DNA of 64,000 nt from Pseudomonas phage PhiPA3: the sequence record HQ630627.1; one strand, written 5' to 3'. Within the stretch, counting starts at the first letter, position 1. Each line of letters starts with the position of its first letter. Below are positions 2,639 to 51,804 of this stretch, piece by piece. The notes under the pieces were generated by a model, which saw nothing but the letters and a program-made list of their open reading frames with translations, was not told the DNA's origin and searched no databases. Both the position numbers and the translations under genes were made by a program.

Positions 2639-4069
2639 ATGCACGCTTATCTCCAGCTGTTGGAAGACATCAAGAAATACGGTGTCTTCAAAGGAGATCG
2701 AACCGGGACTGGTACTCAGTCCCTTTTCGGTCGTCAGTTCCGTTTTGATCTGAAAGACAACAACCTGCCGGTTGTGACCACCAAGTTCGTTCATACCCCG
2801 TCGGTTGAAGTCGAACACGTCTGGATGAAGAACGGTCTCACTAACCTGAAGTTCCTGCTCGATCACAACGTGCGGATCTGGAACGAATGGTGCAAGCCGG
2901 GTACTGAAGTGCGCGTACCGGTGGACGAAGGTGAGCTGGTTGATCTGGTTCAACGCAAGTTCAAGTACGTTGACTTCGAAATGCACCACAGCAATGAAAT
3001 CGAAGAAGACTACAAGTTCATCCTAGATGGTGCTCGTACCAACGGCGAGAAAGGTGCGGTACTGCTGATGAGTGGTAAAGCCTGGATGGATGTCGAGCGT
3101 TTCGGCCCAGGCCCCACTACTTACGACTTCTATGGTCATGCTCGTCGAGTCTGGCAAATCGTCTGCGGAGAAACTACTACCCTTAAAGTAGGGGAAGACG
3201 GCTTTGTTTACCGTCTCGTAGATGGTGATCTGGGTCCGGTGTATGGTAAGACCTGGCGTAATATCGAGGACACTCGGATCATCAAGAAGGCTGAACTCCA
3301 GAACTTCTTGGATCGTAAGTTCACATTCGTGGTGGATGTACCGGGTACATCTCTGGAAACCGATCGAGCTGTAGTTACCCGTAATATCGATCAACTGGCT
3401 GAACTGCTCCATGACCTGGAACACAATCCGGATTCGCGGCGTCTGATCATCTGTGCCTGGGACCCGGCTCTGGTTGATGAACAGGCATTGCCTCCGTGCC
3501 ACGCATTTATTCAGTTCTGGACTCGTAAGCTGGAACTGTCCGAACGTCTGAGTCTGTGGGTTTCCAATAATGCCAATGAATTCATCAAGCATCTGTTGGA
3601 TTATAAGGGGGATTGGCCGACTCAAAACGTTATTGACATCGTCAACACTGGCGAATACCAACAAGTCATTACTCAGGTAGCCGAAAGTGATTGGCTGAAG
3701 TTTGTAGAAGCATCGGGTATTGATCTGACTGGTATTCCTGAACGAGGCATTAGTTGCCAACTCTACCAGCGATCAGTTGACGCATTCCTTGGTTTGCCCT
3801 TTAACATCACCTTCTACTCGATCATGACTCATGCACTGGCCAACCAGTTCAACATGGTTGCAGAAGAGTTCATCTGGACTGGGGGTGATTGCCACATTTA
3901 TTCCAACCACCAAGAACAGACTGATCTACAACTGACTCGGAATACGTTCCCGACTCCGAAGATTCATTTCCGTGAGAAAGGTAAACCGTATCTGGAACTG
4001 GACGTAGGTGATTTCGTGATCGAAGGTTATGAGTATCACCCACACATTGCTGGCAAGGTAGCCGTCTAA
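2639..4069 (+). CDS. thyA: thymidylate synthase family (ThyA-like, dUMP-specific Asn retained) with three large insertions
   Basis: 476 aa. Contains ThyA motifs YLQLLEDI..G..KGDRTGTGTQSLFG.QFRFDL, VVTTKF, IWNEW, DLGPVYGKTWR, NPDSRRLIICAWDP, PPCHAFIQFW, SCQLYQRSVDAFLGLPFNI, WTGGDCHIYSNH. Inserts of ~110, ~30 and ~60 aa versus E. coli ThyA (264 aa). RBS aaggaaatacaATG. Confidence 0.85.
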   Translation: MHAYLQLLEDIKKYGVFKGDRTGTGTQSLFGRQFRFDLKDNNLPVVTTKFVHTPSVEVEHVWMKNGLTNLKFLLDHNVRIWNEWCKPGTEVRVPVDEGELVDLVQRKFKYVDFEMHHSNEIEEDYKFILDGARTNGEKGAVLLMSGKAWMDVERFGPGPTTYDFYGHARRVWQIVCGETTTLKVGEDGFVYRLVDGDLGPVYGKTWRNIEDTRIIKKAELQNFLDRKFTFVVDVPGTSLETDRAVVTRNIDQLAELLHDLEHNPDSRRLIICAWDPALVDEQALPPCHAFIQFWTRKLELSERLSLWVSNNANEFIKHLLDYKGDWPTQNVIDIVNTGEYQQVITQVAESDWLKFVEASGIDLTGIPERGISCQLYQRSVDAFLGLPFNITFYSIMTHALANQFNMVAEEFIWTGGDCHIYSNHQEQTDLQLTRNTFPTPKIHFREKGKPYLELDVGDFVIEGYEYHPHIAGKVAV

Positions 4070-9228: not shown

Positions 9229-10620
9229 ATGGAAAACGTACTGGCCGAACTGAAACCCATTAAGGAAGGTTTCGGTGTCGTTGAAGAGACTCGCAAACTA
9301 GCGCGTATCGTCGAGATCGATGACGTAATCAAACACCCCAATGCCGATGCACTTGAACTGGCCATCGTTGGTGGTTGGCAACTGTGTGTGAAACTCGGTG
9401 AATACAAGAAGGGTGATCGCGCGATTTATTGCGAGATTGATTCTCTCCTGCCCCTGTCCAATATCGAACTCTTCGGTTTCCTCGAAGCGCGTCGTTCGGA
9501 CAACCGTCGTGTTAACGGCGTGAACTACCACCGGCTGAAGACCATCAAACTGCGTAAGGAACTTTCGCAGGGTCTGCTGGTGCCGGTACCGGCTGAATTC
9601 AAAGATGAACCAGTTGATACCAACCTGACCCTGAAGCTGGGTATTCTGAAATATGAATCCGCTCCGCAGATGGAACCCAAGGCTCGTATCGGTCGTGACG
9701 CCCCGTTCTTCGTGAAACTGGGCGCTCGGCTGATCGGTGATCTGGGCGGTGCTCTGCTCCCGTGGCCGAGCATGCTGACTAAGTCGGACCAAGATCGCAT
9801 TCAGAACAAAGGCGTAGCTTTCCATACTGTCAAGGAACAAGGTGACGACATGGAAGTCACCTACAAACTCGACGGTAGCTCGATGACCGTGTTCTGTGTG
9901 AATGACAAGGTTGTCCGCACTGGCGTCTGTTCGCGTAACTACGAACTGGGTACCAGTGAAGCCAACTGGACCTTCACTGAACAAGTACGTTACTGGCTGG
10001 GGAACTTCCTGATCCGTAACCGTAACGTGTTCAAGCTGAGGACCTGGTTCCGTCGTGAAGACGGCGTCCTGGAAGGTCCGCGTAAACCACGTTGGGGTCT
10101 GATCATTCCGGAATGGGTGAAGCGTGTCGATACCTCCGACAACAACTTCATCCGCGTTACTCGTGAACTTAAGATCCGCGAGAAGCTGGTGGACTACCTC
10201 CAGGCTACTGGTCGCTTCATTACTGTTCAAGGTGAACTGATTGGTCCGGATATCCAGGACAACTTTGAAGGTGTGGACAAGCCCGAATACTACGTGTACT
10301 CGGTGTACGAAGATGGTAACATCGTACTGCTCCCGAAAGAAGCACGTAAAATCGTAGCTGAACTCGGTCTGAACTACGTACCGCTGTTTGATCCCGAGTG
10401 GAAACCTACCGCTGAAACCACCGGCAAAGATGTTCTGGCGATGGCTGAAGGTCCGTCTGCGTTCAAGAACAAACGGGGCTACCGGGAAGGTCTGGTGTTC
10501 AAGTCCAATCAACGAGTACTGTCTTGGAAGGCAATCTCGAATCGCTACCTTCTGAAGCAAGAAGAAGAGCTGGAAAAGAAAGCCAAAGCCGAAGAAGCAG
10601 CTGAAGCTGTAGTAGCCTAA
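9229..10620 (+). CDS. ATP-dependent RNA ligase (nucleotidyltransferase KxDG superfamily) with N-terminal tRNA-binding-like OB (Myf/EMAP-type) domain
   Basis: 463 aa. The N-terminal VIKHPNADALELAIVGGWQLCVKLGEYKKGDRAIYCEIDSLLP resembles tRNA-binding OB domains. Motif I TYKLDGSS (KxDG), a YEDGNIVL-like motif III/IIIa region and motif IV REGLVFKS (EGxVxK) are present. RBS aaggaaaatacATG. Confidence 0.75.
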   Translation: MENVLAELKPIKEGFGVVEETRKLARIVEIDDVIKHPNADALELAIVGGWQLCVKLGEYKKGDRAIYCEIDSLLPLSNIELFGFLEARRSDNRRVNGVNYHRLKTIKLRKELSQGLLVPVPAEFKDEPVDTNLTLKLGILKYESAPQMEPKARIGRDAPFFVKLGARLIGDLGGALLPWPSMLTKSDQDRIQNKGVAFHTVKEQGDDMEVTYKLDGSSMTVFCVNDKVVRTGVCSRNYELGTSEANWTFTEQVRYWLGNFLIRNRNVFKLRTWFRREDGVLEGPRKPRWGLIIPEWVKRVDTSDNNFIRVTRELKIREKLVDYLQATGRFITVQGELIGPDIQDNFEGVDKPEYYVYSVYEDGNIVLLPKEARKIVAELGLNYVPLFDPEWKPTAETTGKDVLAMAEGPSAFKNKRGYREGLVFKSNQRVLSWKAISNRYLLKQEEELEKKAKAEEAAEAVVA

Positions 10621-10621
10621 C

Positions 10622-10654
10622 GGCATACGGGGAGGCTTCGGCCTCCCTTTCTAT
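10622..10654 (+). terminator. rho-independent terminator (GGGGAGGC-UUCG-GCCUCCC plus UUUCUAUUU)
   Basis: stem-loop plus T-rich tail after the RNA ligase stop. Confidence 0.7.
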
Positions 10655-18893: not shown

Positions 18894-19159
18894 TGGATTC
18901 CACAATCCATGTCGCTTATAGTTACAGTATCATACGGCTATGCCAAGACTCGCCCCGCACCAGCCATACGCGACGTCGGTCATGGTCAGTTCAACGCAAT
19001 AGTTACAAAGAAAGTAACGGTGAATACCTACGTTATCCATCTAAAGCCGATGCAATAACCGGCTGGTTTTCTGCTACCAATGCACGGATTGCCAAGAAGC
19101 AGGCAAAGAGATACCTCAAACTCAACATTAACAAGTTCAAAGAACAGGTGCAAGCATGA
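18893..19159 (+). CDS. hypothetical basic protein
   Basis: 88-aa ORF, TAATG overlap. Confidence 0.5.
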   Translation: MDSTIHVAYSYSIIRLCQDSPRTSHTRRRSWSVQRNSYKESNGEYLRYPSKADAITGWFSATNARIAKKQAKRYLKLNINKFKEQVQA

Positions 19160-19509
19160 CTATTTATTTCGAAGGTAATGGTGAATCCAAGCCGGTTACC
19201 CTGAGCCAAACCCGTGACCAGTTCATGCTGGCTATCAAGAACAAGCGCGATGAGGTTCTGTCAAATCCGCTGCTGGAAACTTACGAAGACCCGGCACAGC
19301 GTGACCGCGTAGTGGCAGATGCTACTATTAAAGGTGTTCTACAAGTGCTGGATGGTGAATCCAATGACTTCCCAGCAGTGGAACTCAAGCCGTTCGTTCC
19401 AGAAGAAGACATCACCGAAGCAAAAGAAGCAGGTGCGGATTACTTAGATCCAGAATGTGCTGATTTCGGTCAAGGGTTGGCTGAGTACTGGAACTTGATC
19501 TCTTCCTAA
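19156..19509 (+). CDS. small acidic protein, member of tandem paralog family (C-terminus ...EYWNLISS)
   Basis: 117 aa; central ATIKGVLQVLDGESNDF core motif and conserved C-terminal tail shared with neighbours. Confidence 0.65.
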   Translation: MTIYFEGNGESKPVTLSQTRDQFMLAIKNKRDEVLSNPLLETYEDPAQRDRVVADATIKGVLQVLDGESNDFPAVELKPFVPEEDITEAKEAGADYLDPECADFGQGLAEYWNLISS

Positions 19510-19514
19510 GGAGG

Positions 19515-19769
19515 TTGGTGATGGCAACGTTGAAAGAGGATGTCCTCGGTCAAATATCATTCGAGTTGCTAGAACTGCGCCAGGCTTTGCTTGACGACGT
19601 TCCTAACATGACCCCGAGCAAGCTGATTGATCGAGCTATCACTGGTGCAACTACGGTATTGGAAAAGAATTTTGAATTCAAAGCCAAGGCCGTTCAGGAA
19701 TGCAACGGTGATCCCCACTGGTGTGTTGGTATAACCGAGAAATACTGGGAAGACCTTACAAGCGGTTAG
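19515..19769 (+). CDS. small acidic protein, paralog family member (C-terminus ...KYWEDLTSG)
   Basis: 84 aa; RBS ctaaggaggttggtgATG; core LIDRAITGATTVLEKNFE. Confidence 0.65.
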   Translation: MVMATLKEDVLGQISFELLELRQALLDDVPNMTPSKLIDRAITGATTVLEKNFEFKAKAVQECNGDPHWCVGITEKYWEDLTSG

Positions 19770-19777
19770 GAGGGCAC

Positions 19778-20347
19778 ATGCGGATTAAACCAGAGAGGGT
19801 GTTGATGGTAGTCAACCAAACTATCTATCACCCGGATATGCCGAGTACAGTTGTTTTCCACAAGGGGGATACTCTTGAGGTTAAGGACGATGGAACGTTG
19901 GTCTACCTCAATAATGATCCCTTTACGCGGTTTCCCAAACCGGCAACACCAATGAGTAAGCAGGCTTACGATCAGTTCGTTAAACCTTATCTGGATAAAT
20001 TTCCATCGCCGGCACCTAAACCGGTACGTCCATCTCTTAAAGAACAGTGGGCGGCCGTAGGGATTGATCTGGACAAGTGGGATCCAACCACCAGACCTGA
20101 ATACGATGGACCTTCCCCTCAACTGTCATACACTCGTGAAGCTTTGCGTGCACTAGCAGACAAGAAGGTAATCGACATGTACGGGATCGTTAAGGGGGCG
20201 AAACAACAGGCTCTCATGACGCAGTTGATCCAAAGTACTGTGGTGGACACAGTGAAGGTCATTGACAAACATCTGGTTATTCAGGACGACTACCATGAAG
20301 ATGTTTGGGGGATTACTGAACAACTCTTCAACGACATCAGTAACTAG
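19778..20347 (+). CDS. paralog family member with N-terminal extension (C-terminus ...EQLFNDISN)
   Basis: track 19721..20347; ATG 19778 with RBS ggagggcacATG; C-terminal half carries the core-like LIQSTVVDTVKVIDKHL. Confidence 0.65.
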   Translation: MRIKPERVLMVVNQTIYHPDMPSTVVFHKGDTLEVKDDGTLVYLNNDPFTRFPKPATPMSKQAYDQFVKPYLDKFPSPAPKPVRPSLKEQWAAVGIDLDKWDPTTRPEYDGPSPQLSYTREALRALADKKVIDMYGIVKGAKQQALMTQLIQSTVVDTVKVIDKHLVIQDDYHEDVWGITEQLFNDISN

Positions 20348-20355
20348 GAGGTCAT

Positions 20356-20925
20356 ATGTTCTTCCTCACTGAAGATACAGAATGCAGTATCAATGGGCGC
20401 ACTGTCAAAGTTTCGGAAGGGACAGTGGTTGCACCGGAAGGGCTTATCGACCTGGATATGATCCCGGTACGATTCCCTGGGCATGATGACAGCAGTACGC
20501 ATTTCCTGCCGGTCTCATCGCTACAATGGAAATACGAACCTGACCAACTGCTATTGCGTGAAGCAGTTGAAGAAACCACCGAACAGATTATTGAGGGTGT
20601 TGGGATCTATGATAACGACATCTCGTTCAATAATGCCCTCGAACGGTTGGCGAAAGTACGAAAAGATCTGCACAGGGATGTAAACAACTATCTCCCTGAA
20701 AGCATGCAAACTGTCGTTCACCTGTTGGTAGATGAATCCATCGCAGCTGGGATGAACGTGATCGCCGAGAACTACGAGCTACGTGGCGATATGCGGTATG
20801 GTCCGGATGAAGAAAATGCCATCGAGGTTTCCTACGAAACTACCCAGTCGGTCAATGATTCTCTGTGGAACACTATCTTCGAGCTAGAAGTAGATAAGCT
20901 CCAGGAGATCAGTGATGAGCAGTGA
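20356..20925 (+). CDS. acidic protein, divergent paralog family member (core LVDESIAAGMNVIAENYE)
   Basis: 189 aa; RBS aggaggtcatATG. Confidence 0.65.
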   Translation: MFFLTEDTECSINGRTVKVSEGTVVAPEGLIDLDMIPVRFPGHDDSSTHFLPVSSLQWKYEPDQLLLREAVEETTEQIIEGVGIYDNDISFNNALERLAKVRKDLHRDVNNYLPESMQTVVHLLVDESIAAGMNVIAENYELRGDMRYGPDEENAIEVSYETTQSVNDSLWNTIFELEVDKLQEISDEQ

Positions 20926-21036
20926 AATTAATCACGTCCTTGATCCCAAGAAATAAATACGCTCGTGTGTTAGCTTGTGTGATGATTGTCGTCATCGTTC
21001 AAGCTAGCTCATTTAAATTCATCTAGGAGTAATACA

Positions 21037-21654
21037 ATGGCTGAAGTTAAATTCGAGATCACCTCGGATAAAGCTCATCTGGGTAAGACCCTGCTGGGTG
21101 CTGAACTTGTGCGCCAACTGCGTAAAGCTGGCTTTCCGGTGGTCACCGAATGCATAGACGGTGATCTGGAGTGCCGGGTTGAAGACGACGAGACTGATCA
21201 CAATCATCGCCTGAAAGAGCTGGGGAAGTTCTTCCAGGACAATGGTCATGCGGTTAAAGTGGTCGAGTACTTGACTGTTCCGCTAGCGCGCTATCCACTT
21301 TTTGATCAGCAAACCCGTGTGGTCATGCCTGTTCCGAACGGTGTTGAAAACCCCGCCGCCTTTGCAGAGGAAGTCAATGCCGCAGTGAAGGGTATCTTCG
21401 AACGGTATGGGGTACCACCAGAAGCATATGCCAAGCTTCGACAATCCAGTCTCTATGGTCGGCCGTTATCCCGTGCCGTGCTCGAACTGGATAAAGATAA
21501 CCCGGATCCATCGCATACGGCTCAACTCGTTCAAGATGCGATCAATGAGTCTGCCCATCGTGCGTTCCCACTGGGTGACCCGCGTGATCAACGTCAGGAT
21601 GTCTCTGACGCCATCGCTAATGCCAACAATGTTGTACTGTCCAAGAAACCCTAA
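21037..21654 (+). CDS. hypothetical protein (possibly a distant family member)
   Basis: track 20986..21654; ATG 21037 with RBS taggagtaatacaATG. Confidence 0.6.
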   Translation: MAEVKFEITSDKAHLGKTLLGAELVRQLRKAGFPVVTECIDGDLECRVEDDETDHNHRLKELGKFFQDNGHAVKVVEYLTVPLARYPLFDQQTRVVMPVPNGVENPAAFAEEVNAAVKGIFERYGVPPEAYAKLRQSSLYGRPLSRAVLELDKDNPDPSHTAQLVQDAINESAHRAFPLGDPRDQRQDVSDAIANANNVVLSKKP

Positions 21655-21667
21655 TAGGAGCTTTACC

Positions 21668-21982
21668 GTGGAAGAAATTGAAATGACCCAAGCGCAAGAA
21701 AACAAAGAAATCGTTCGTACCTCCTACGCAGCTACCGTGCTGGCTGGAGTGGTTGAATTCGGTGGTGATCTGCTGCGCGATGTACCGAGTGATAGCGCCG
21801 CACATGCTCTGGTCCCTCAAGCCATTGCGGGTACTCTGGACGCCGTACAGAACGCCTACCACCTCGTACCGAAGATCGAGTATGTGGGTGATGACCTGCG
21901 TGATCGCGAAGCACCGGTAAATACCGAGAGCACCAAGCTTAGCGGTCTGCTGGATGAGCTCTGGGATAAGGTCTCTGGCTAA
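21668..21982 (+). CDS. small acidic protein, paralog family member (GTG start; C-terminus ...DELWDKVSG)
   Basis: RBS taggag, then GTG at 21668 (alternative ATG 21683); core QAIAGTLDAVQNAYHLV nearly identical to the 22632 gene. Confidence 0.55.
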   Translation: MEEIEMTQAQENKEIVRTSYAATVLAGVVEFGGDLLRDVPSDSAAHALVPQAIAGTLDAVQNAYHLVPKIEYVGDDLRDREAPVNTESTKLSGLLDELWDKVSG

Positions 21983-22121
21983 TGCCTACGGTTTTTGATA
22001 TAGCTGAAAACCGAGCCCGTTTCGTTACTTCTGTAATTAAGGAAGATAAGGCAATTCATCTGCGCTTATCTAAATCCACCGATAGTGGCGTGCTTATCGA
22101 TATCTGGAAGGATGTTTGATT

Positions 22122-22412
22122 ATGAGTGAACAACTGAAGATTCGCGGTTGTAGCGAGATCCTAACGGATTTCAACAACCATCTGGTCGAAAAGCTGATTG
22201 CGGTACGTGATAACTGCACTACTGAATTTGACATCGCTCCTGAGGTGGTGAACAAGATCGTTGGTAGTACAGTTGAGGTCATGGAGACCACCTGTCGTAT
22301 TCTACCCGACTACGACAAGATCCTGACCGAGGAAGAGAAGAAAGCCGAACTCACTTTGGTCTGGAGTCCTGTGGGTTACACTGAGGCTTTCTGGAATGCC
22401 GTCAGCAACTGA
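22122..22412 (+). CDS. small acidic protein, paralog family member (C-terminus ...EAFWNAVSN)
   Basis: track 22116..22412 begins at an in-frame TTG; ATG at 22122 (MSEQLKIRG); core VVNKIVGSTVEVMETT. Confidence 0.6.
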   Translation: MSEQLKIRGCSEILTDFNNHLVEKLIAVRDNCTTEFDIAPEVVNKIVGSTVEVMETTCRILPDYDKILTEEEKKAELTLVWSPVGYTEAFWNAVSN

Positions 22413-22590
22413 AATTGATCTGGTAGAGGCAGTCACTCGTACTGCACCTCTACCAGTCGAGAAGAATCTCTCTATTCGAGAGAAGAACGTTATCCGTCGC
22501 GTGAACCGTAAATGTAAAGCTGAACGTAAGCGTATTCATAACGCTACGCTAGGTATGTTACGTCGCATGGTGCTCGAATCGGTTAACTAA
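22396..22590 (+). CDS. small basic protein
   Basis: 64-aa ORF overlapping the previous gene's end; weak RBS. Confidence 0.35.
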   Translation: MPSATEIDLVEAVTRTAPLPVEKNLSIREKNVIRRVNRKCKAERKRIHNATLGMLRRMVLESVN

Positions 22591-22631
22591 CCCAAGGCTT
22601 AGATACCCTTGGTCAATATCTGGAGACGGGA

Positions 22632-22958
22632 ATGACTACCCAATTCTTTGGTGCTGTAAAAGAAGCTCGACAAGCGGCTATCGACCTCTACAAGACTCAG
22701 CTCACTGATGAGCAGGTCCGTGAAGCGGTCAAAGGTATGGGTGCCGACGAAATCATTGCTCACTTCACTGGTATCCGGGAACAGCGTGCAATGGATGCAA
22801 TCGACATGGCCATTGGTGGTACCCTCGATGCAGTGGAAAACCACTACGAGGAAATCATCGAAGCCACGGCCTCTGACTCGGAAGGGACGGAGATCGAAGT
22901 GAGTGTATCGTGTGTCAGCAGTCTGGCTGCTTCGTTCTTTGACGAGATCAGCAATTGA
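22632..22958 (+). CDS. small acidic protein, paralog family member (C-terminus ...ASFFDEISN)
   Basis: 108 aa; RBS ctggagacgggaATG; core MAIGGTLDAVENHYEEI. Confidence 0.65.
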   Translation: MTTQFFGAVKEARQAAIDLYKTQLTDEQVREAVKGMGADEIIAHFTGIREQRAMDAIDMAIGGTLDAVENHYEEIIEATASDSEGTEIEVSVSCVSSLAASFFDEISN

Positions 22959-22969
22959 TGTAACGGCAT

Positions 22970-23010
22970 ATCGGCTCTCCTTCGGGAGAGCCGGTGTGTT
23001 CATTTCTTTT
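22970..23010 (+). terminator. rho-independent terminator (CGGCUCUCC-UUCG-GGAGAGCCG plus U-run)
   Basis: stem-loop then gttcatttcttttttgg. Confidence 0.7.
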
Positions 23011-39379: not shown

Positions 39380-40165
39380 ATGAATCGTCGTACCGAATAC
39401 CGTTTCTCTCTGTCATACGACCGTGAGCTGGTCGCTGCTAATCCACTGGGTTTCGTGGTTGAAGAATTCCTTGGAGGCTGGTTCAAAGAACTCGAAGAAA
39501 AGATCAATCGAGATTATGTAGCTAGCTATAATGTGCCTTTCCATGGTAGCTGGAACTACTTTGAGTTGGAGCAATTCCAAAACAATGCTTTCTTCAACCA
39601 GTACCACGAAGTAATGCAGTCCCTCGAAGCATTGGAAAAACAACTGGGCGAACGCGCCGGATTGCGCATCCAGATCACAAAACCTGAGTGTGCTCTTACC
39701 CATGTACTGATTGGTCAGGATAAGATTTTGTTGTCTCCTGATTGTGGTCACGTGGGTATCCGTGTTCCAGAAGGGACAGTGGTGGCTAGCGAAAGATGGG
39801 GTGACCATAGAGATCGTAACGTAGATTCCATTGCTGTGTTTGGTGAGCATTCCAAGATGCGCTACGTTGCCAAGCAGGTGCGCTACGCATTGAAGCAAAA
39901 AGGTGTAACCACGATCGCTAACAGTTCGATGGCGCGATTCCTACATGACCTCTTCCACCCCACCTACGAAAACAACCAAAAGTACAAGTTCAACATGATC
40001 ATGTCTGACGTGTATGTATTGGTGTTATTCAAGGATGGTGGTGCTGAGATCTATGGCAAGGATCTGGGAGAGATCTTCGAAAACCATAACCTGATATTCC
40101 TAGAACGGGAATACACCATTTGTGGACAACATTTCCCGATGTTGACTGGAGACCGTTTGGTATAA
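39380..40165 (+). CDS. hypothetical protein
   Basis: 261-aa ORF; RBS aggagactccaATG. Confidence 0.65.
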   Translation: MNRRTEYRFSLSYDRELVAANPLGFVVEEFLGGWFKELEEKINRDYVASYNVPFHGSWNYFELEQFQNNAFFNQYHEVMQSLEALEKQLGERAGLRIQITKPECALTHVLIGQDKILLSPDCGHVGIRVPEGTVVASERWGDHRDRNVDSIAVFGEHSKMRYVAKQVRYALKQKGVTTIANSSMARFLHDLFHPTYENNQKYKFNMIMSDVYVLVLFKDGGAEIYGKDLGEIFENHNLIFLEREYTICGQHFPMLTGDRLV

Positions 40166-40167
40166 TC

Positions 40168-41694
40168 ATGGAAACATTGATACATTACTACGACCTGTTC
40201 ATGACAATCAGTCAGAAGAACATGGTCATGGGGGGTGTAATTGGAGCGGGGATTGGTGCTTTCTTCTGGAGTGTCCTTCGGGGCATTCCGAGGAAGACCA
40301 TCAACGCGATTAAGTCGCAGTTGATATCCACGCTCCATATCACCAACGTGGGGAATCAGTTTAACGAGAAAAACTTCGATGCTTTCATGGAGTGGTATCA
40401 GAAGCAACCGTTGGCTGGGTATAACCGAAGACTCAGTGCGAACACAGTTGACGACTGGGTATCGTCCGATGAGAGAAAACCAACGATTGGGGTTGGCTTC
40501 GGTTTACACTTCTTCATGTACCGTGGGCGACTGTTTTGGTTTAATAAAGTTCGGATCGACGGTAACCAATCTGCCGTAGATAAGCAGGAGATTCTGATCC
40601 ATGGGTTGACACGTGATAAACAGCTCCTGGTAGACATGGTGGAAGAGTACCGTGTTAAGCGAAAGAAGAATGGCCTGACGATCTGTCATTGGGACGGCAA
40701 TCGCTGGGGCAACGAGATTGAAGTCACCAAACGTGATCTATCAACCGTTGTTCTGAACAATGAGATCAAAGCTGGACTGATGCGTCGAATGGAGGAATTC
40801 TATTCTGGACGCGCGTGGTATGATGAACGTGGGCTACCCTACAAGTTCACGGTAGTTTTCCACGGGCCACCGGGTACAGGTAAATCGTCTTTGGCTAAAG
40901 CATTCGCTTCTCACTACAATAAAAATGTCAGCACGATGTCTTTGGCAGCCATGTCGAACGATACCCTGCGGCGAGCTTTCCTGACGCTGCCTAAAGGGAA
41001 CATCCTACTCATCGAGGACTTTGACGATACACCTGCTGTCAAAGATCGCTTGTCTTCTGATCCCGTTAAATTGGAAAACGAGATTAAGCGAATGGAACGT
41101 GAATATAAGCTGGAGTATATCGGCCATCTGTTTCCGGACATGCAGGAGTATGAGAACAGTGTCCAGCGCTACGTAGCTATCGATAAAGTTGCCATTATGG
41201 CAGACCTTAGCCACGAGCCTGCCGGTCTCAGTGTCAGCATGGGTGGTGTTCGTGATGAGATTGAAAGCCAGGGCTACCAGATGGGCCCCGTCAGTATTGA
41301 TGACTACGCAATTTGTCAACGGTACGCTGAGCTTTTGGTTAAGCGCGATCAGGGTGTACAGTTTGATACGAGTTCAGGCTTGACTTTATCGGCGCTGCTC
41401 AATGCGCTCGATGGGATCGTTCCTTTGGATGAAACGATGGTTATCATGACTACTAACCATCCAGAAAACCTGGACGCTGCATTGACTCGTAAGGGTCGTG
41501 TGGATTACATGGTCGAGATCCCGTTGTTCCAAGATGCGGAGGTACGTGAGTACATCAATCTCATGTTCCCGGATTACGAGGTCCCTACGGATATTCGTTT
41601 CCGGCCCATTGCAGGTTGCGATGTCATGGCGGCCTTCAGTGAAAACCGGACCTGTCCAGAATCGATGATTCGCGCCCTACCTAAAGTAGCATAA
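40168..41694 (+). CDS. BCS1-like AAA+ ATPase with N-terminal transmembrane anchor
   Basis: track 40120..41694; ATG 40168 after the upstream stop. N-terminal TM MVMGGVIGAGIGAFFWSVL. Regions HFFMYRGRLFWFNKVR, VVLNNEIKAGLMRRMEEFYSGRAWYDERGLPYKFTVVFHGPPGTGKSSLAKAF, ILLIEDFDD and LLNALDGIV align by eye with mitochondrial BCS1 (HWFRYRGRWIWVERSR, ...YLLYGPPGCGKSSF, LVLLEDVDAAF, LLNALDGV). Confidence 0.85.
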   Translation: METLIHYYDLFMTISQKNMVMGGVIGAGIGAFFWSVLRGIPRKTINAIKSQLISTLHITNVGNQFNEKNFDAFMEWYQKQPLAGYNRRLSANTVDDWVSSDERKPTIGVGFGLHFFMYRGRLFWFNKVRIDGNQSAVDKQEILIHGLTRDKQLLVDMVEEYRVKRKKNGLTICHWDGNRWGNEIEVTKRDLSTVVLNNEIKAGLMRRMEEFYSGRAWYDERGLPYKFTVVFHGPPGTGKSSLAKAFASHYNKNVSTMSLAAMSNDTLRRAFLTLPKGNILLIEDFDDTPAVKDRLSSDPVKLENEIKRMEREYKLEYIGHLFPDMQEYENSVQRYVAIDKVAIMADLSHEPAGLSVSMGGVRDEIESQGYQMGPVSIDDYAICQRYAELLVKRDQGVQFDTSSGLTLSALLNALDGIVPLDETMVIMTTNHPENLDAALTRKGRVDYMVEIPLFQDAEVREYINLMFPDYEVPTDIRFRPIAGCDVMAAFSENRTCPESMIRALPKVA

Positions 41695-49944: not shown

Positions 49945-51804
49945 TTAACTAGGGTTATACACGTACAGTGTTTTCTGTATAACGTTCCCAGGCTGTACGC
50001 CACCCGACACATATATCATGCCATTGACAGATGCACACGAAATGTCGTTACCAATTACAGGTAGATCAGGTAGTTGTTTCCATGTATTAGCAACCACATC
50101 ATATTCCCAGAAATCACTGAACGTTTGTGAAGCTGAAGCACCACCGACAATGTAAACCTTATTGCCAACTGACGCCATACCAAACGAAACTCTTGCCTGT
50201 ATAGCGGTGGGGACATTGGCTAGCTTTGTCCATACACGGGTATTCAAATCCAGTACATGGACATCCCTCGACATGGTAGTTCCATTCAACCAACCAAATG
50301 CCAAGACTAGTTTACCCGCAGCAATAGCCATCCGACCATTCTTGCGTGGTGGGGGTGTGGAACCAGAAACCGATGGTTTAGTCCATTTATTTCCAGTACC
50401 GTCCAGATTGTACTGATAAAGGGCATTGTCAGTTGGACCACTATCACCGAACATATAAAGACTTCGTCCATAAGAAGCCATGCAGTGACCCATTCTCCAA
50501 CTGGGCATTGCGCCATCAGTAATTGAACTCCAGGTATTTACACTGGGGTCGTATGCAAACATATCCGGTGAAGAATTAGATCCACTGAAAATATAAGTCT
50601 TCCCATCTATTGTTGCACCAGCGGTTTCATGCCTTCCTGGTCCTTGGACAGCATCTTCGCTCCATGTGTTCGTATATGGATCGTAACTGTAATTGGTATT
50701 TGTTACCACCGCGCCAGTAGATCCGTAAAGAACCCTGTATTTACCAGCACTCTCAACCCCAACAGCACTCCGGCGACCCGCAGGCATATCGGCTAGCTGT
50801 GTCCATTGGTTCTTCTCAATTGATGGGGCTAATCGAATGCGATAGACATCTTCTAAGAGGTTTGCTTTCAAGAAATATCCTTGGCTGGACATTGGAACCT
50901 TGGTACCACCACTGACAATCATATCCCCATTACCCATCGGTGCAACGGAAACGATGTTTCTATAAGGGATATTCAACTTCAGTGGTTCAGCAAATCGCTT
51001 AGTTTTAATGTGGAATCGTTGTGCATACATTTCACCATTAACGACGTTAATATAGTTGTAGTAATCGCCAGTAACGTATCCGTTACCCTGCCACACCACT
51101 CCTTTATCTTCCGGTAACGTCATCCATGGCGTTTGTTCCCAGGTACCTGCTGCATTATTGTATCTATAAACGTCGAGATACAATCCACCCTTGTCATTAT
51201 TCCAACCACCAAAATGGTAGAAGTAACCATCGTAGTAAAAAAGCTGCTGCCCTGAGCGTGTATCACCGGCGTAGTTTTGACCAGCTTTCCAATCATTAGT
51301 AGCCGGACGGAGTCTAATAGAGTTATTGGAAGTACCGTTCGCTATCATTACGTCGGTACCACCGTCAGAAGCTGCCGCTGTACCATAGAACGAAAATGGC
51401 CCAGGTACAGTGCTCACTCTGGCGCCAGTTGCCTTAGTAAAGCGCTGCATTCTATTGGTCAGACCAGTACCGCCCATACCCGCAGAGTCATATCCGGTGA
51501 TACCACCGAATGTAAAGAACTCTCCGTTATGCATTACATGGTAGCCGATAGAAAAACCAGGGGAGAACGTTCCAGCTGTGGTTGATCCAATATACGAGAA
51601 AGGTTCCAACGTATACTGCCTGAATACGGTCCCTGCTACTGAACCTTCAGTATGGTGACCAGAACCAACAAACAGTGTGTTACCATCCACGTAAGAAGAT
51701 GAACCTCCTAACGCTACTCCTAAATCACCTAGTTTATCTATCCTCCCAAAACCGGTTAAAGGTAGCTGCTCGCCTTTTCCTGACGAAAGTAATATTTCAA
51801 ACAT
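49945..51804 (-). CDS. Kelch-repeat beta-propeller protein (galactose-oxidase-like fold; candidate tail fibre / host-recognition or carbohydrate-binding protein)
   Basis: 619 aa with repeated Kelch-type units (e.g. VYIVGGASASQTFSDFWEYDVVANTWKQLPDLP, IYVSGG...LYVYNP, FYHFGGWNNDKGGLYLDVYRYNNAAGTWEQ). Confidence 0.7.
   Translation of the reverse strand: MFEILLSSGKGEQLPLTGFGRIDKLGDLGVALGGSSSYVDGNTLFVGSGHHTEGSVAGTVFRQYTLEPFSYIGSTTAGTFSPGFSIGYHVMHNGEFFTFGGITGYDSAGMGGTGLTNRMQRFTKATGARVSTVPGPFSFYGTAAASDGGTDVMIANGTSNNSIRLRPATNDWKAGQNYAGDTRSGQQLFYYDGYFYHFGGWNNDKGGLYLDVYRYNNAAGTWEQTPWMTLPEDKGVVWQGNGYVTGDYYNYINVVNGEMYAQRFHIKTKRFAEPLKLNIPYRNIVSVAPMGNGDMIVSGGTKVPMSSQGYFLKANLLEDVYRIRLAPSIEKNQWTQLADMPAGRRSAVGVESAGKYRVLYGSTGAVVTNTNYSYDPYTNTWSEDAVQGPGRHETAGATIDGKTYIFSGSNSSPDMFAYDPSVNTWSSITDGAMPSWRMGHCMASYGRSLYMFGDSGPTDNALYQYNLDGTGNKWTKPSVSGSTPPPRKNGRMAIAAGKLVLAFGWLNGTTMSRDVHVLDLNTRVWTKLANVPTAIQARVSFGMASVGNKVYIVGGASASQTFSDFWEYDVVANTWKQLPDLPVIGNDISCASVNGMIYVSGGVQPGNVIQKTLYVYNPS

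Follow-up and report, generated by a model that had tools for sequence, protein, structure and literature searches.

Why should a block of small phage proteins that resemble one another only weakly end, with a single exception, in the same short peptide? The question is raised by gp306-gp313 of the Pseudomonas jumbo phage PhiPA3, a tandem block of closely packed genes, all on the + strand, in a 64-kb window of the phage genome (the whole stretch of DNA analysed here). PhiPA3, phiKZ and 201phi2-1 are model nucleus-forming phages, in which most small early genes are without known function. The block contains seven diverged paralogs of an old, diversifying and lineage-restricted family with a conserved C-terminal heptad, and the same heptad is shared, without detectable homology, by a second family, that of phiKZ gp186. 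We favour, though tentatively, a reading in which this short peptide would serve for docking onto one common partner, which acts early and in the cytoplasm, and in which both the essential gp186 and the accessory array make use of it.

A conserved C-terminal heptad in the gp306-gp313 block

The recurrent tail was first noticed in the original prediction, made from the letters of the window alone, which gave its consensus as [FLYW][WF][NDE]x[ILV][ST][NSG]-COOH and quoted six examples; these, and all of the open reading frames (ORFs) named with them, are present exactly as quoted. When ORFs of at least 30 amino acids (aa) were scanned in the six frames of the whole window, the strict tail was found to close five, namely gp306, gp308, gp311, gp312 and gp313 (Table 1), and none outside the block, against a mean of 0.01 and a maximum of one in shuffled controls (200 shuffles). 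Described more broadly, the ending is an amphipathic heptad, [YLF]-[FW]-x-x-[IV]-[SN]-[NSTG]-COOH, that ends the chain in six of the seven members. The tail of gp307 is a variant one residue longer, and in gp309 the heptad is internal (LWNTIFE, residues 170-176, nucleotides (nt) 20863-20883) and is followed by 13 more residues. In gp313 the tail reads SFFDEISN (nt 22932-22955), within which the conserved heptad FFDEISN occupies nt 22935-22955. Some members encode the serine of the tail by TCT, others by AGC or AGT, and the stop codons and the sequences downstream of the tails also differ between members, indicating that the tail is constrained at the level of the protein, not as a DNA signal.

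Pairwise BLAST similarity between the members is weak, the best pair being gp311 and gp313 (E 1e-3), while gp309 finds gp307 and gp311 at E 0.03-0.14. For this reason an external hidden Markov model (HMM) was built on 45 homologs, all of them from other phages or metagenomes and none from PhiPA3, and run on all 497 ORFs of the window. The seven best-scoring ORFs are the seven genes that the original prediction had named. Five of them are firm members (gp306, 2e-18; gp307, 2e-18; gp313, 7e-15; gp311, 3.5e-9; gp312, 1.4e-6) and two, in ranks 6 and 7, are borderline (gp309, 0.009 over residues 95-173; gp308, 0.05 over the C-terminal 52 residues), with the next ORF of the window following at E 2.5. 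The interspersed gene gp310 and two unannotated ORFs, g7 and g9, have no match to the family HMM at E <= 10 and no tail. The array of seven to nine paralogs first proposed is therefore supported at seven but not at nine: the gene at 21037 (gp310), listed as a possible distant member, and that at 22396 (g9), credited with a weak tail resemblance, both drop out.

The description of the products as small acidic proteins holds, the members having isoelectric points (pI) of 4.1-4.6 with the exception of gp308. Their common architecture consists of N-terminal helices, a central helix (D-x-A-I-x-G-T-L-x-x-x-E), a short beta segment with a variable acidic loop, and the heptad. In gp308 and gp309 an N-terminal extension precedes the family module, which is C-terminal in gp308; a shared N-terminal domain in these two proteins is unsupported by BLAST. 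The central core that had been reported among the paralogs is real at the family level, with the consensus just given, but the exact expression first written for it is fully matched by gp311 (AIAGTLDAVQNAYH) and gp313 only, the core helix of the latter being AIGGTLDAVENHYE (nt 22809-22850).

Searches with hmmscan assign gp306 (E 1.4e-50) and gp313 (E 2.6e-19), both over their full length, to PHROG 11061 ('unknown function'). The other members do not match this family, and gp308, gp309, gp311 and gp312 match no PHROG. No Pfam family reaches an E value below 0.08 with the array proteins, and PADLOC, the library of which represents defence systems and not counter-defence proteins, finds no match in the array. 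The claim that no described family fits the pattern is thus correct in that no description of a function or of the motif was found, but gp306 and gp313 fall in PHROG 11061 and the genes are annotated, as hypothetical gp306-gp313. As a side observation, gp307 matches phrog_3008 ('DNA methyltransferase') at E 1e-17, over profile positions 121-207 of 244 only; this label probably derives from fused or mis-clustered members of the profile and should not be transferred to gp307.

Conservation of the heptad in related phages

Orthologs of the array were detected by tblastn in phiKZ-like Pseudomonas phages only. Those of gp306 are found in 201phi2-1, Phabio, phiKZ (gp258) and PA1C, those of gp307 in 201phi2-1 (gp370) and Phabio (gp367), that of gp311 in PA1C (E 2e-8), and those of gp313 in Phabio, PA1C and 201phi2-1; a locus search with gp306 alone recovered Phabio only. 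A profile search that covered 1.84 billion representative proteins exhaustively returned no more than 19 matches, from which it follows that the family is tiny and lineage-restricted.

Translation of the syntenic loci revealed tandem arrays with the same ending in three phages. The seven members in Phabio (gp366-373) end in DYFSMVNS, EYFRVVNT, RFFNKVNT, KLWDDIST, KLFDEISN, KYFESVNS and LYFEEISN, the array of 201phi2-1 (gp369-380) contains the tails EYWNQVSN, LYFEEVSN, KYWDMVNG and LLWEAVSN, and the six members in PA1C all end in VN[STNQ]. The single phiKZ member, gp258, ends in DYFIFVNRG. The tail is therefore retained in the homologs of all four related phages, and it is also kept in metagenomic homologs. 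Some homologs of the gp307 type run past the motif with acidic extensions (e.g., YWDLVNDKGEE), and the chain of gp309 likewise continues beyond it; members of the array family can thus do without a free C-terminus at the motif.

Best-hit orthogroups of the gp306, gp307, gp311 and gp313 types are common to several phages, which places the duplications before the split of these phages. For gp308, gp309, gp310 and gp312 no orthologs were detectable by BLAST, and the locus thus evolves fast. The proposal of an expanding gene family is hence sound insofar as a tandemly expanded and diverged family is genuine; the duplications themselves are mostly old.

The same tail on a second family, phiKZ gp186

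The ends of all 1328 ORFs were scanned in phiLBG22, a whole PA1C-like genome (302.5 kb assembled). Besides the array, one ORF of 139 aa, located ∼56 kb from the array, ends in the motif (NQLFEEVNT), and this ORF is the ortholog of phiKZ gp186. With a position-specific scoring matrix (PSSM) made from array tails only, the top seven of the 1328 ORFs are the six array members and the gp186 ortholog, which at a score of 14.4 ranks fifth, ahead of two true array members; the next score is 3.5 and the background lies at -25.5 +/- 9.2. In the reciprocal search, with a PSSM made from gp186 tails only, gp308, gp313 and gp312 are the top three of the 497 ORFs of the PhiPA3 window, gp308 being first.

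The gp186 family (201phi2-1 gp283, Phabio gp275; PHROG 16459, unknown function) is like the array in its heptad and in consisting of small, soluble, early proteins, and differs from it in being single-copy, essential and very abundant. Its tails include SFFEDVNS (phiKZ), HLFEDVSN (201phi2-1), GLFDDISS (Phabio), GLFDDINN (Noxifer) and DEIANINS (Psa21). Among ∼50 gp186 homologs from the databases, a set that is without PhiPA3's own ortholog, every chain stops exactly at [IV][NS][NST]-COOH.

Homology between the two families was detected neither by profile nor by fold, the latter with the limit that the model of the array protein gp313 is of low confidence. Alignment of the gp186 and array profiles with hhalign, in three modes including local and global, gave probabilities of 0.1-0.3%, and the gp186 HMM, when run on the array, matched the tail and nothing else. 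The AlphaFold2 model of gp186 is confident (predicted local distance difference test, pLDDT, 90.6); with it, Foldseek recovered orthologs and relatives from Erwinia and Klebsiella chimalliviruses at 14-20% identity but no array member, and a search of the Protein Data Bank returned no counterpart. UniProt W8D0I2 and A0A7R8MK93 are examples of its structural homologs in chimalliviruses that do not infect Pseudomonas. The AlphaFold2 model of gp313, made from a 30-sequence alignment, has a pLDDT of 59, which is too low to interpret, and its Foldseek matches are array members only. No match to the gp186 HMM was found in the 99 of 218 kb of Erwinia phage PhiEaH1 that were searched. The idea of a common docking motif, raised originally for the array alone, gains weight from the presence of the same tail on this family, which has no detectable homology to the array.

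The two families also co-vary at position -2 of the tail. This residue is serine in all six of the PhiPA3 members that end in the tail and asparagine in all six PA1C members. In gp186 it is serine in the 201phi2-1/Phabio clade (18 of 19 homologs) and asparagine in the PA1C, phiKZ, Noxifer and Psa21 clades. Serine at -2 of the array tails is confined to the clade in which gp186 has serine (0/7 vs 12/18; Fisher p = 0.005, phylogeny being ignored), a pattern that is suggestive of co-evolution with one partner.

Published expression, essentiality and localisation

In transposon sequencing of phiKZ, gp258 tolerates insertions and sits in a large non-essential region, orf184-304 (PMC12676376), and on these data the array region is regarded as accessory. 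gp186 received 0 insertions, its neighbours gp185 and gp187 many (PMC12676376). Knock-down of gp186 with an antisense oligonucleotide (ASO) was scored '+++' for loss of plaques and of ChmA, the protein of the nuclear shell (PMC12571901 and its preprint). The ASO study (PMC12571901) classes gp186 as 'non-core', despite the structural relatives that Foldseek recovered from Erwinia and Klebsiella chimalliviruses. By Grad-seq at 10 min, gp186 is found in light fractions at a log10 iBAQ (intensity-based absolute quantification) of 10.0 with its mRNA still rising, and gp258 is soluble and light, with the same peak in fraction 3 as gp186, while the 12-kDa gp187 peaks in gradient fraction 2 (PMC10914614).

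Two members of the PhiPA3 array have been detected in proximity-labelling experiments: gp313 was labelled by nuclear RecA-miniTurboID in two of three trials, and gp308 by both the RecA and the ChmA baits (PMC10643120). The corresponding green fluorescent protein (GFP) fusions, for which the tagged end is not stated, were described as 'diffuse cytoplasmic' (gp313) and 'cytoplasmic puncta' (gp308; PMC10643120). In the annotation of 201phi2-1, gp382 is flagged as a virion protein on the basis of mass spectrometry and gp369-gp380 are not flagged. The supplements on size-exclusion chromatography-mass spectrometry of PMC10449902 yielded no partner, and in the searchable literature nothing was found on gp258, on gp306-313, on the tail or on its sharing with gp186. 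JADA, the Avs5 trigger, was considered and proved to be a different protein.

A proposed shared docking peptide and its alternatives

Under the docking reading, the common partner of the heptad would act in the cytoplasm at an early stage of infection. For gp186, the essential protein, the heptad would serve a core function, and the array proteins would carry the same anchor on variable bodies, either bringing different activities to the partner or competing for it and modulating it, such that the array could be an arsenal for host takeover or counter-defence that is still diversifying. Both the partner and its binding by the heptad are putative. It is also conceivable, although we consider it rather doubtful, that the heptad is a portable address tag for a hitherto unrecognised early-infection hub of phiKZ-like phages, with the array proteins as competitors or adaptors that retune this hub across hosts and defences; gp186, an essential early factor needed before ChmA accumulates, and the array would then plug into the same host or phage receptor.

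Several observations weigh against a docking role. Hardly any residues, and no long flexible linker, separate the tail helix from the last beta strand, which would suit an integral structural element just as well. gp309 and several array homologs extend past the motif, so that a free carboxylate is not needed there, and the last six residues of the gp186 model (pLDDT ∼79) may pack on the domain. The order of the secondary-structure elements is similar in the two families, which may thus be remotely homologous; the gp313 model is of low confidence (pLDDT 59); and the serine/asparagine co-variation rests on few lineages.

The alternative that best survives, unlikely as we judge it to be, takes up these same points. 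The heptad would serve the structure or oligomerisation of an ancient fold common to two remotely homologous families, gp186 and the array, of which the array would be a degenerate, duplicated offshoot, and no external partner would be involved. What is conserved best would then be a part needed for folding or self-association, the C-terminal helix with its cap, which might, for instance, be packed on the sheet or exchanged between protomers. Both families have N-terminal helices, a long central helix, two to three beta strands and a C-terminal helix, with the tail directly after the last strand; endings in N, S, T, G or D are typical of helix C-caps, extensions past the motif are tolerated in some members, and the gp186 tail, at its pLDDT of ∼79, is not modelled as disordered. 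The peak of gp186 and gp258 in fraction 3, against fraction 2 for the 12-kDa gp187, would fit small oligomers. A common fold is nevertheless difficult to reconcile with the very low profile-profile probability and with the lack of any cross-family Foldseek match, though gp186 finds relatives at 14-20% identity. Furthermore, no other part comes close to the tail in conservation across both families, its exact chain end is invariant in ∼50 gp186 sequences, which is rare for purely structural terminal helices, and clade-wise co-variation of serine and asparagine is not expected from folding alone.

Less likely, and in our estimation improbable, is a C-terminal degron or timing signal, by which a protease or adaptor of the host or the phage would control how long these early proteins last. 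Hydrophobic or aromatic tags at the C-terminus commonly target bacterial proteins for ClpXP-, Lon- or Tsp-type proteolysis, and both families are made early. In addition, chimallivirus relatives have genes for an SspB-like adaptor and for an HslU-like protease (bioRxiv 10.1101/2023.02.24.529968). Such a signal would, however, sit poorly with the abundance of gp186, one of the most plentiful phage proteins at 10 min, and with its still rising mRNA; the tail is unlike the ssrA-type LAA-COOH, and the members are acidic, soluble and present in light fractions.

A signal that sorts proteins to the phage nucleus, to the early-infection vesicle or to the virion likewise belongs to the less likely readings and seems very improbable. 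To our knowledge, no linear import signal has been described for nucleus-forming phages, which must sort their proteins, and the biotinylation of gp313 and gp308 by nuclear RecA-miniTurboID, and of gp308 also by ChmA, would be in keeping with such a signal. The GFP fusions were cytoplasmic, however, with the reservation that a tag at the C-terminus could hide the tail. In the whole PA1C-like genome only gp186 and the array carry the tail, so that the known nuclear proteins do not, and ChmA and PhuZ have unrelated C-termini. In the examined region of 201phi2-1 the array is not flagged as virion although the nearby gp382 is; together with the cytoplasmic GFP signals of gp313 and gp308 and the soluble, light-fraction behaviour of gp258, this disfavours the virion-packaging signal that had been among the roles initially suggested. 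Mimicry of the ChmA or PhuZ C-terminus by the tail was considered as a separate candidate and rejected, ChmA of 201phi2-1 ending in QTGPSSFY and PhuZ in VDEDGMVV.

Chance resemblance, or a nucleotide-level signal (ribosome binding site (RBS), promoter or terminator) laid over the gene ends, is excluded, since, for all that the genes are tightly packed and an RBS lies within a few bases after the tails of gp306-gp308, five tails were observed against the 0.01 of the shuffles, serine codons, stops and downstream sequences differ between members, and the tail is conserved in distant phages with other neighbouring genes.

If the heptad serves for docking, it would offer a concrete and cheap handle on the partner of gp186, a protein whose knock-down blocks infection before ChmA accumulates. 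The tail also gives a reason for the presence of seven 'hypothetical' genes in one block. Should it prove to bind a hub, this phage family would have its first described linear motif, one that could be used to tag phage functions or to compete with them.

Organisation of the block and other features of the window

The features of the block are listed in Table 1. A search of the phage collection for DNA nearly identical to the window had no match. The gp names come from exact protein look-ups, except for gp308 and gp311, which were assigned by inference from gene order; the look-up of gp306 returned a 100% identical PhiPA3 protein annotated 'hypothetical protein AVT69_gp304 / protein 306'. The ATG of g7 overlaps the stop codon of gp311 and its end lies 2 nt upstream of gp312, while g9 overlaps the end of gp312. 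Neither of these two ORFs has a match in the protein collection or a slot in the gp306-gp313 numbering of PhiPA3. gp310 is without an ortholog detectable by BLAST in the related arrays.

Table 1. Genes, ORFs and terminator-like element of the gp306-gp313 block (positions refer to the 64-kb window).
Feature	Position	Strand	Size	pI	Tail	Assignment
g1, gp306 (YP_009217385.1)	19156-19509	+	117 aa	4.1	EYWNLISS	Firm member
g2, gp307	19515-19769 (annotated start 19521)	+	82-84 aa		YWEDLTSG (variant)	Firm member
g3, gp308	19778-20347	+	189 aa	5.8	QLFNDISN	Borderline member
g4, gp309	20356-20925	+	189 aa	4.2		Borderline member
g5, gp310	21037-21654	+	205 aa			Interspersed non-member gene
g6, gp311	21668-21982	+	104 aa		ELWDKVSG	Firm member
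g7, unannotated ORF	21982-22119	+	45 aa			Non-member, fills the gap between gp311 and gp312
g8, gp312	22122-22412	+	96 aa		AFWNAVSN	Firm member
g9, unannotated ORF	22396-22590	+	64 aa	10.9 (basic)		Non-member
g10, gp313 (YP_009217392.1)	22632-22958	+	108 aa	4.2	SFFDEISN	Firm member
Very strong terminator-like hairpin	22965-23000	+	GC-rich 16-bp stem, then T run			7 nt after the gp313 stop, at the end of the block

Elsewhere the window encodes a ribonucleotide reductase, a thymidylate synthase, an RNA ligase and a BCS1-like ATPase. The ribonucleotide reductase shares 74% identity with its counterpart in PA1C-like Pseudomonas jumbo phages. The thymidylate synthase (2639-4069, + strand, 476 aa) matches its Pfam family in two stretches, with ∼140 extra residues within the domain, and the BCS1-like AAA ATPase (40120-41694, + strand) comprises BCS1_N and AAA domains. 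The strand opposite the RNA-ligase gene (9229-10620, + strand) carries an ORF of 442 aa and near full length (9298-10626). On the - strand, 49945-51804 encodes a protein of 619 aa, residues 1-326 of which are 54% identical to a phiKZ 'virion structural protein', followed by a C-terminal Kelch beta-propeller that is absent from phiKZ; the protein looks like a fibre-like virion protein with an exchanged distal domain. This Kelch-repeat protein was considered as a receptor for the tail and rejected, its N-terminal half being a virion protein and phiKZ having both tail families without the Kelch domain.

Comparison with known systems

The closest known relative of the array is phiKZ gp258 (PHROG 11061) with its orthologs 201phi2-1 gp369, Phabio gp366 and a PA1C protein, which have the same size, acidity, central helix and tail. 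gp306 is 48% identical to phiKZ gp258 and ∼60% identical to the 201phi2-1 and Phabio orthologs. The phages differ in copy number, phiKZ having the one gene whereas PhiPA3 has seven diverged paralogs, most of which lie outside PHROG 11061.

The block also resembles the small, fast-evolving accessory or anti-defence arrays of phages, its genes being small, acidic, tandem, poorly conserved, located on an accessory arm and dispensable in a relative (phiKZ). Anti-defence is a candidate role that fits the accessory, dispensable location only, and we know of no accessory or anti-defence array described as having a constant terminal motif in common with an essential protein.

Docking tails that converge on one hub are known from the T4 clamp (gp45), which is bound by the tails of gp43, gp55 and gp33, from the beta-clamp motif QL[SD]LF and from the SSB tip DDDIPF. 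By analogy, the PhiPA3 and gp186 tails would be comparable in that unrelated proteins of one system end in a short acidic-aromatic peptide. The pattern itself differs, and the clamp-, SSB- and ssrA-type tails, of which the clamp had been named among possible targets, find no match in sequence: when the tails are read directly, none fits the beta-clamp consensus QL[SD]LF or QLxLxL, gp308 offering only Q-L-F, and neither DDDIPF-COOH nor LAA-COOH is seen, the tails ending in the small polar residues [SN][NSTG]. The motif, its carriers and the putative partner are new; the docking tail as a device is of a known kind.

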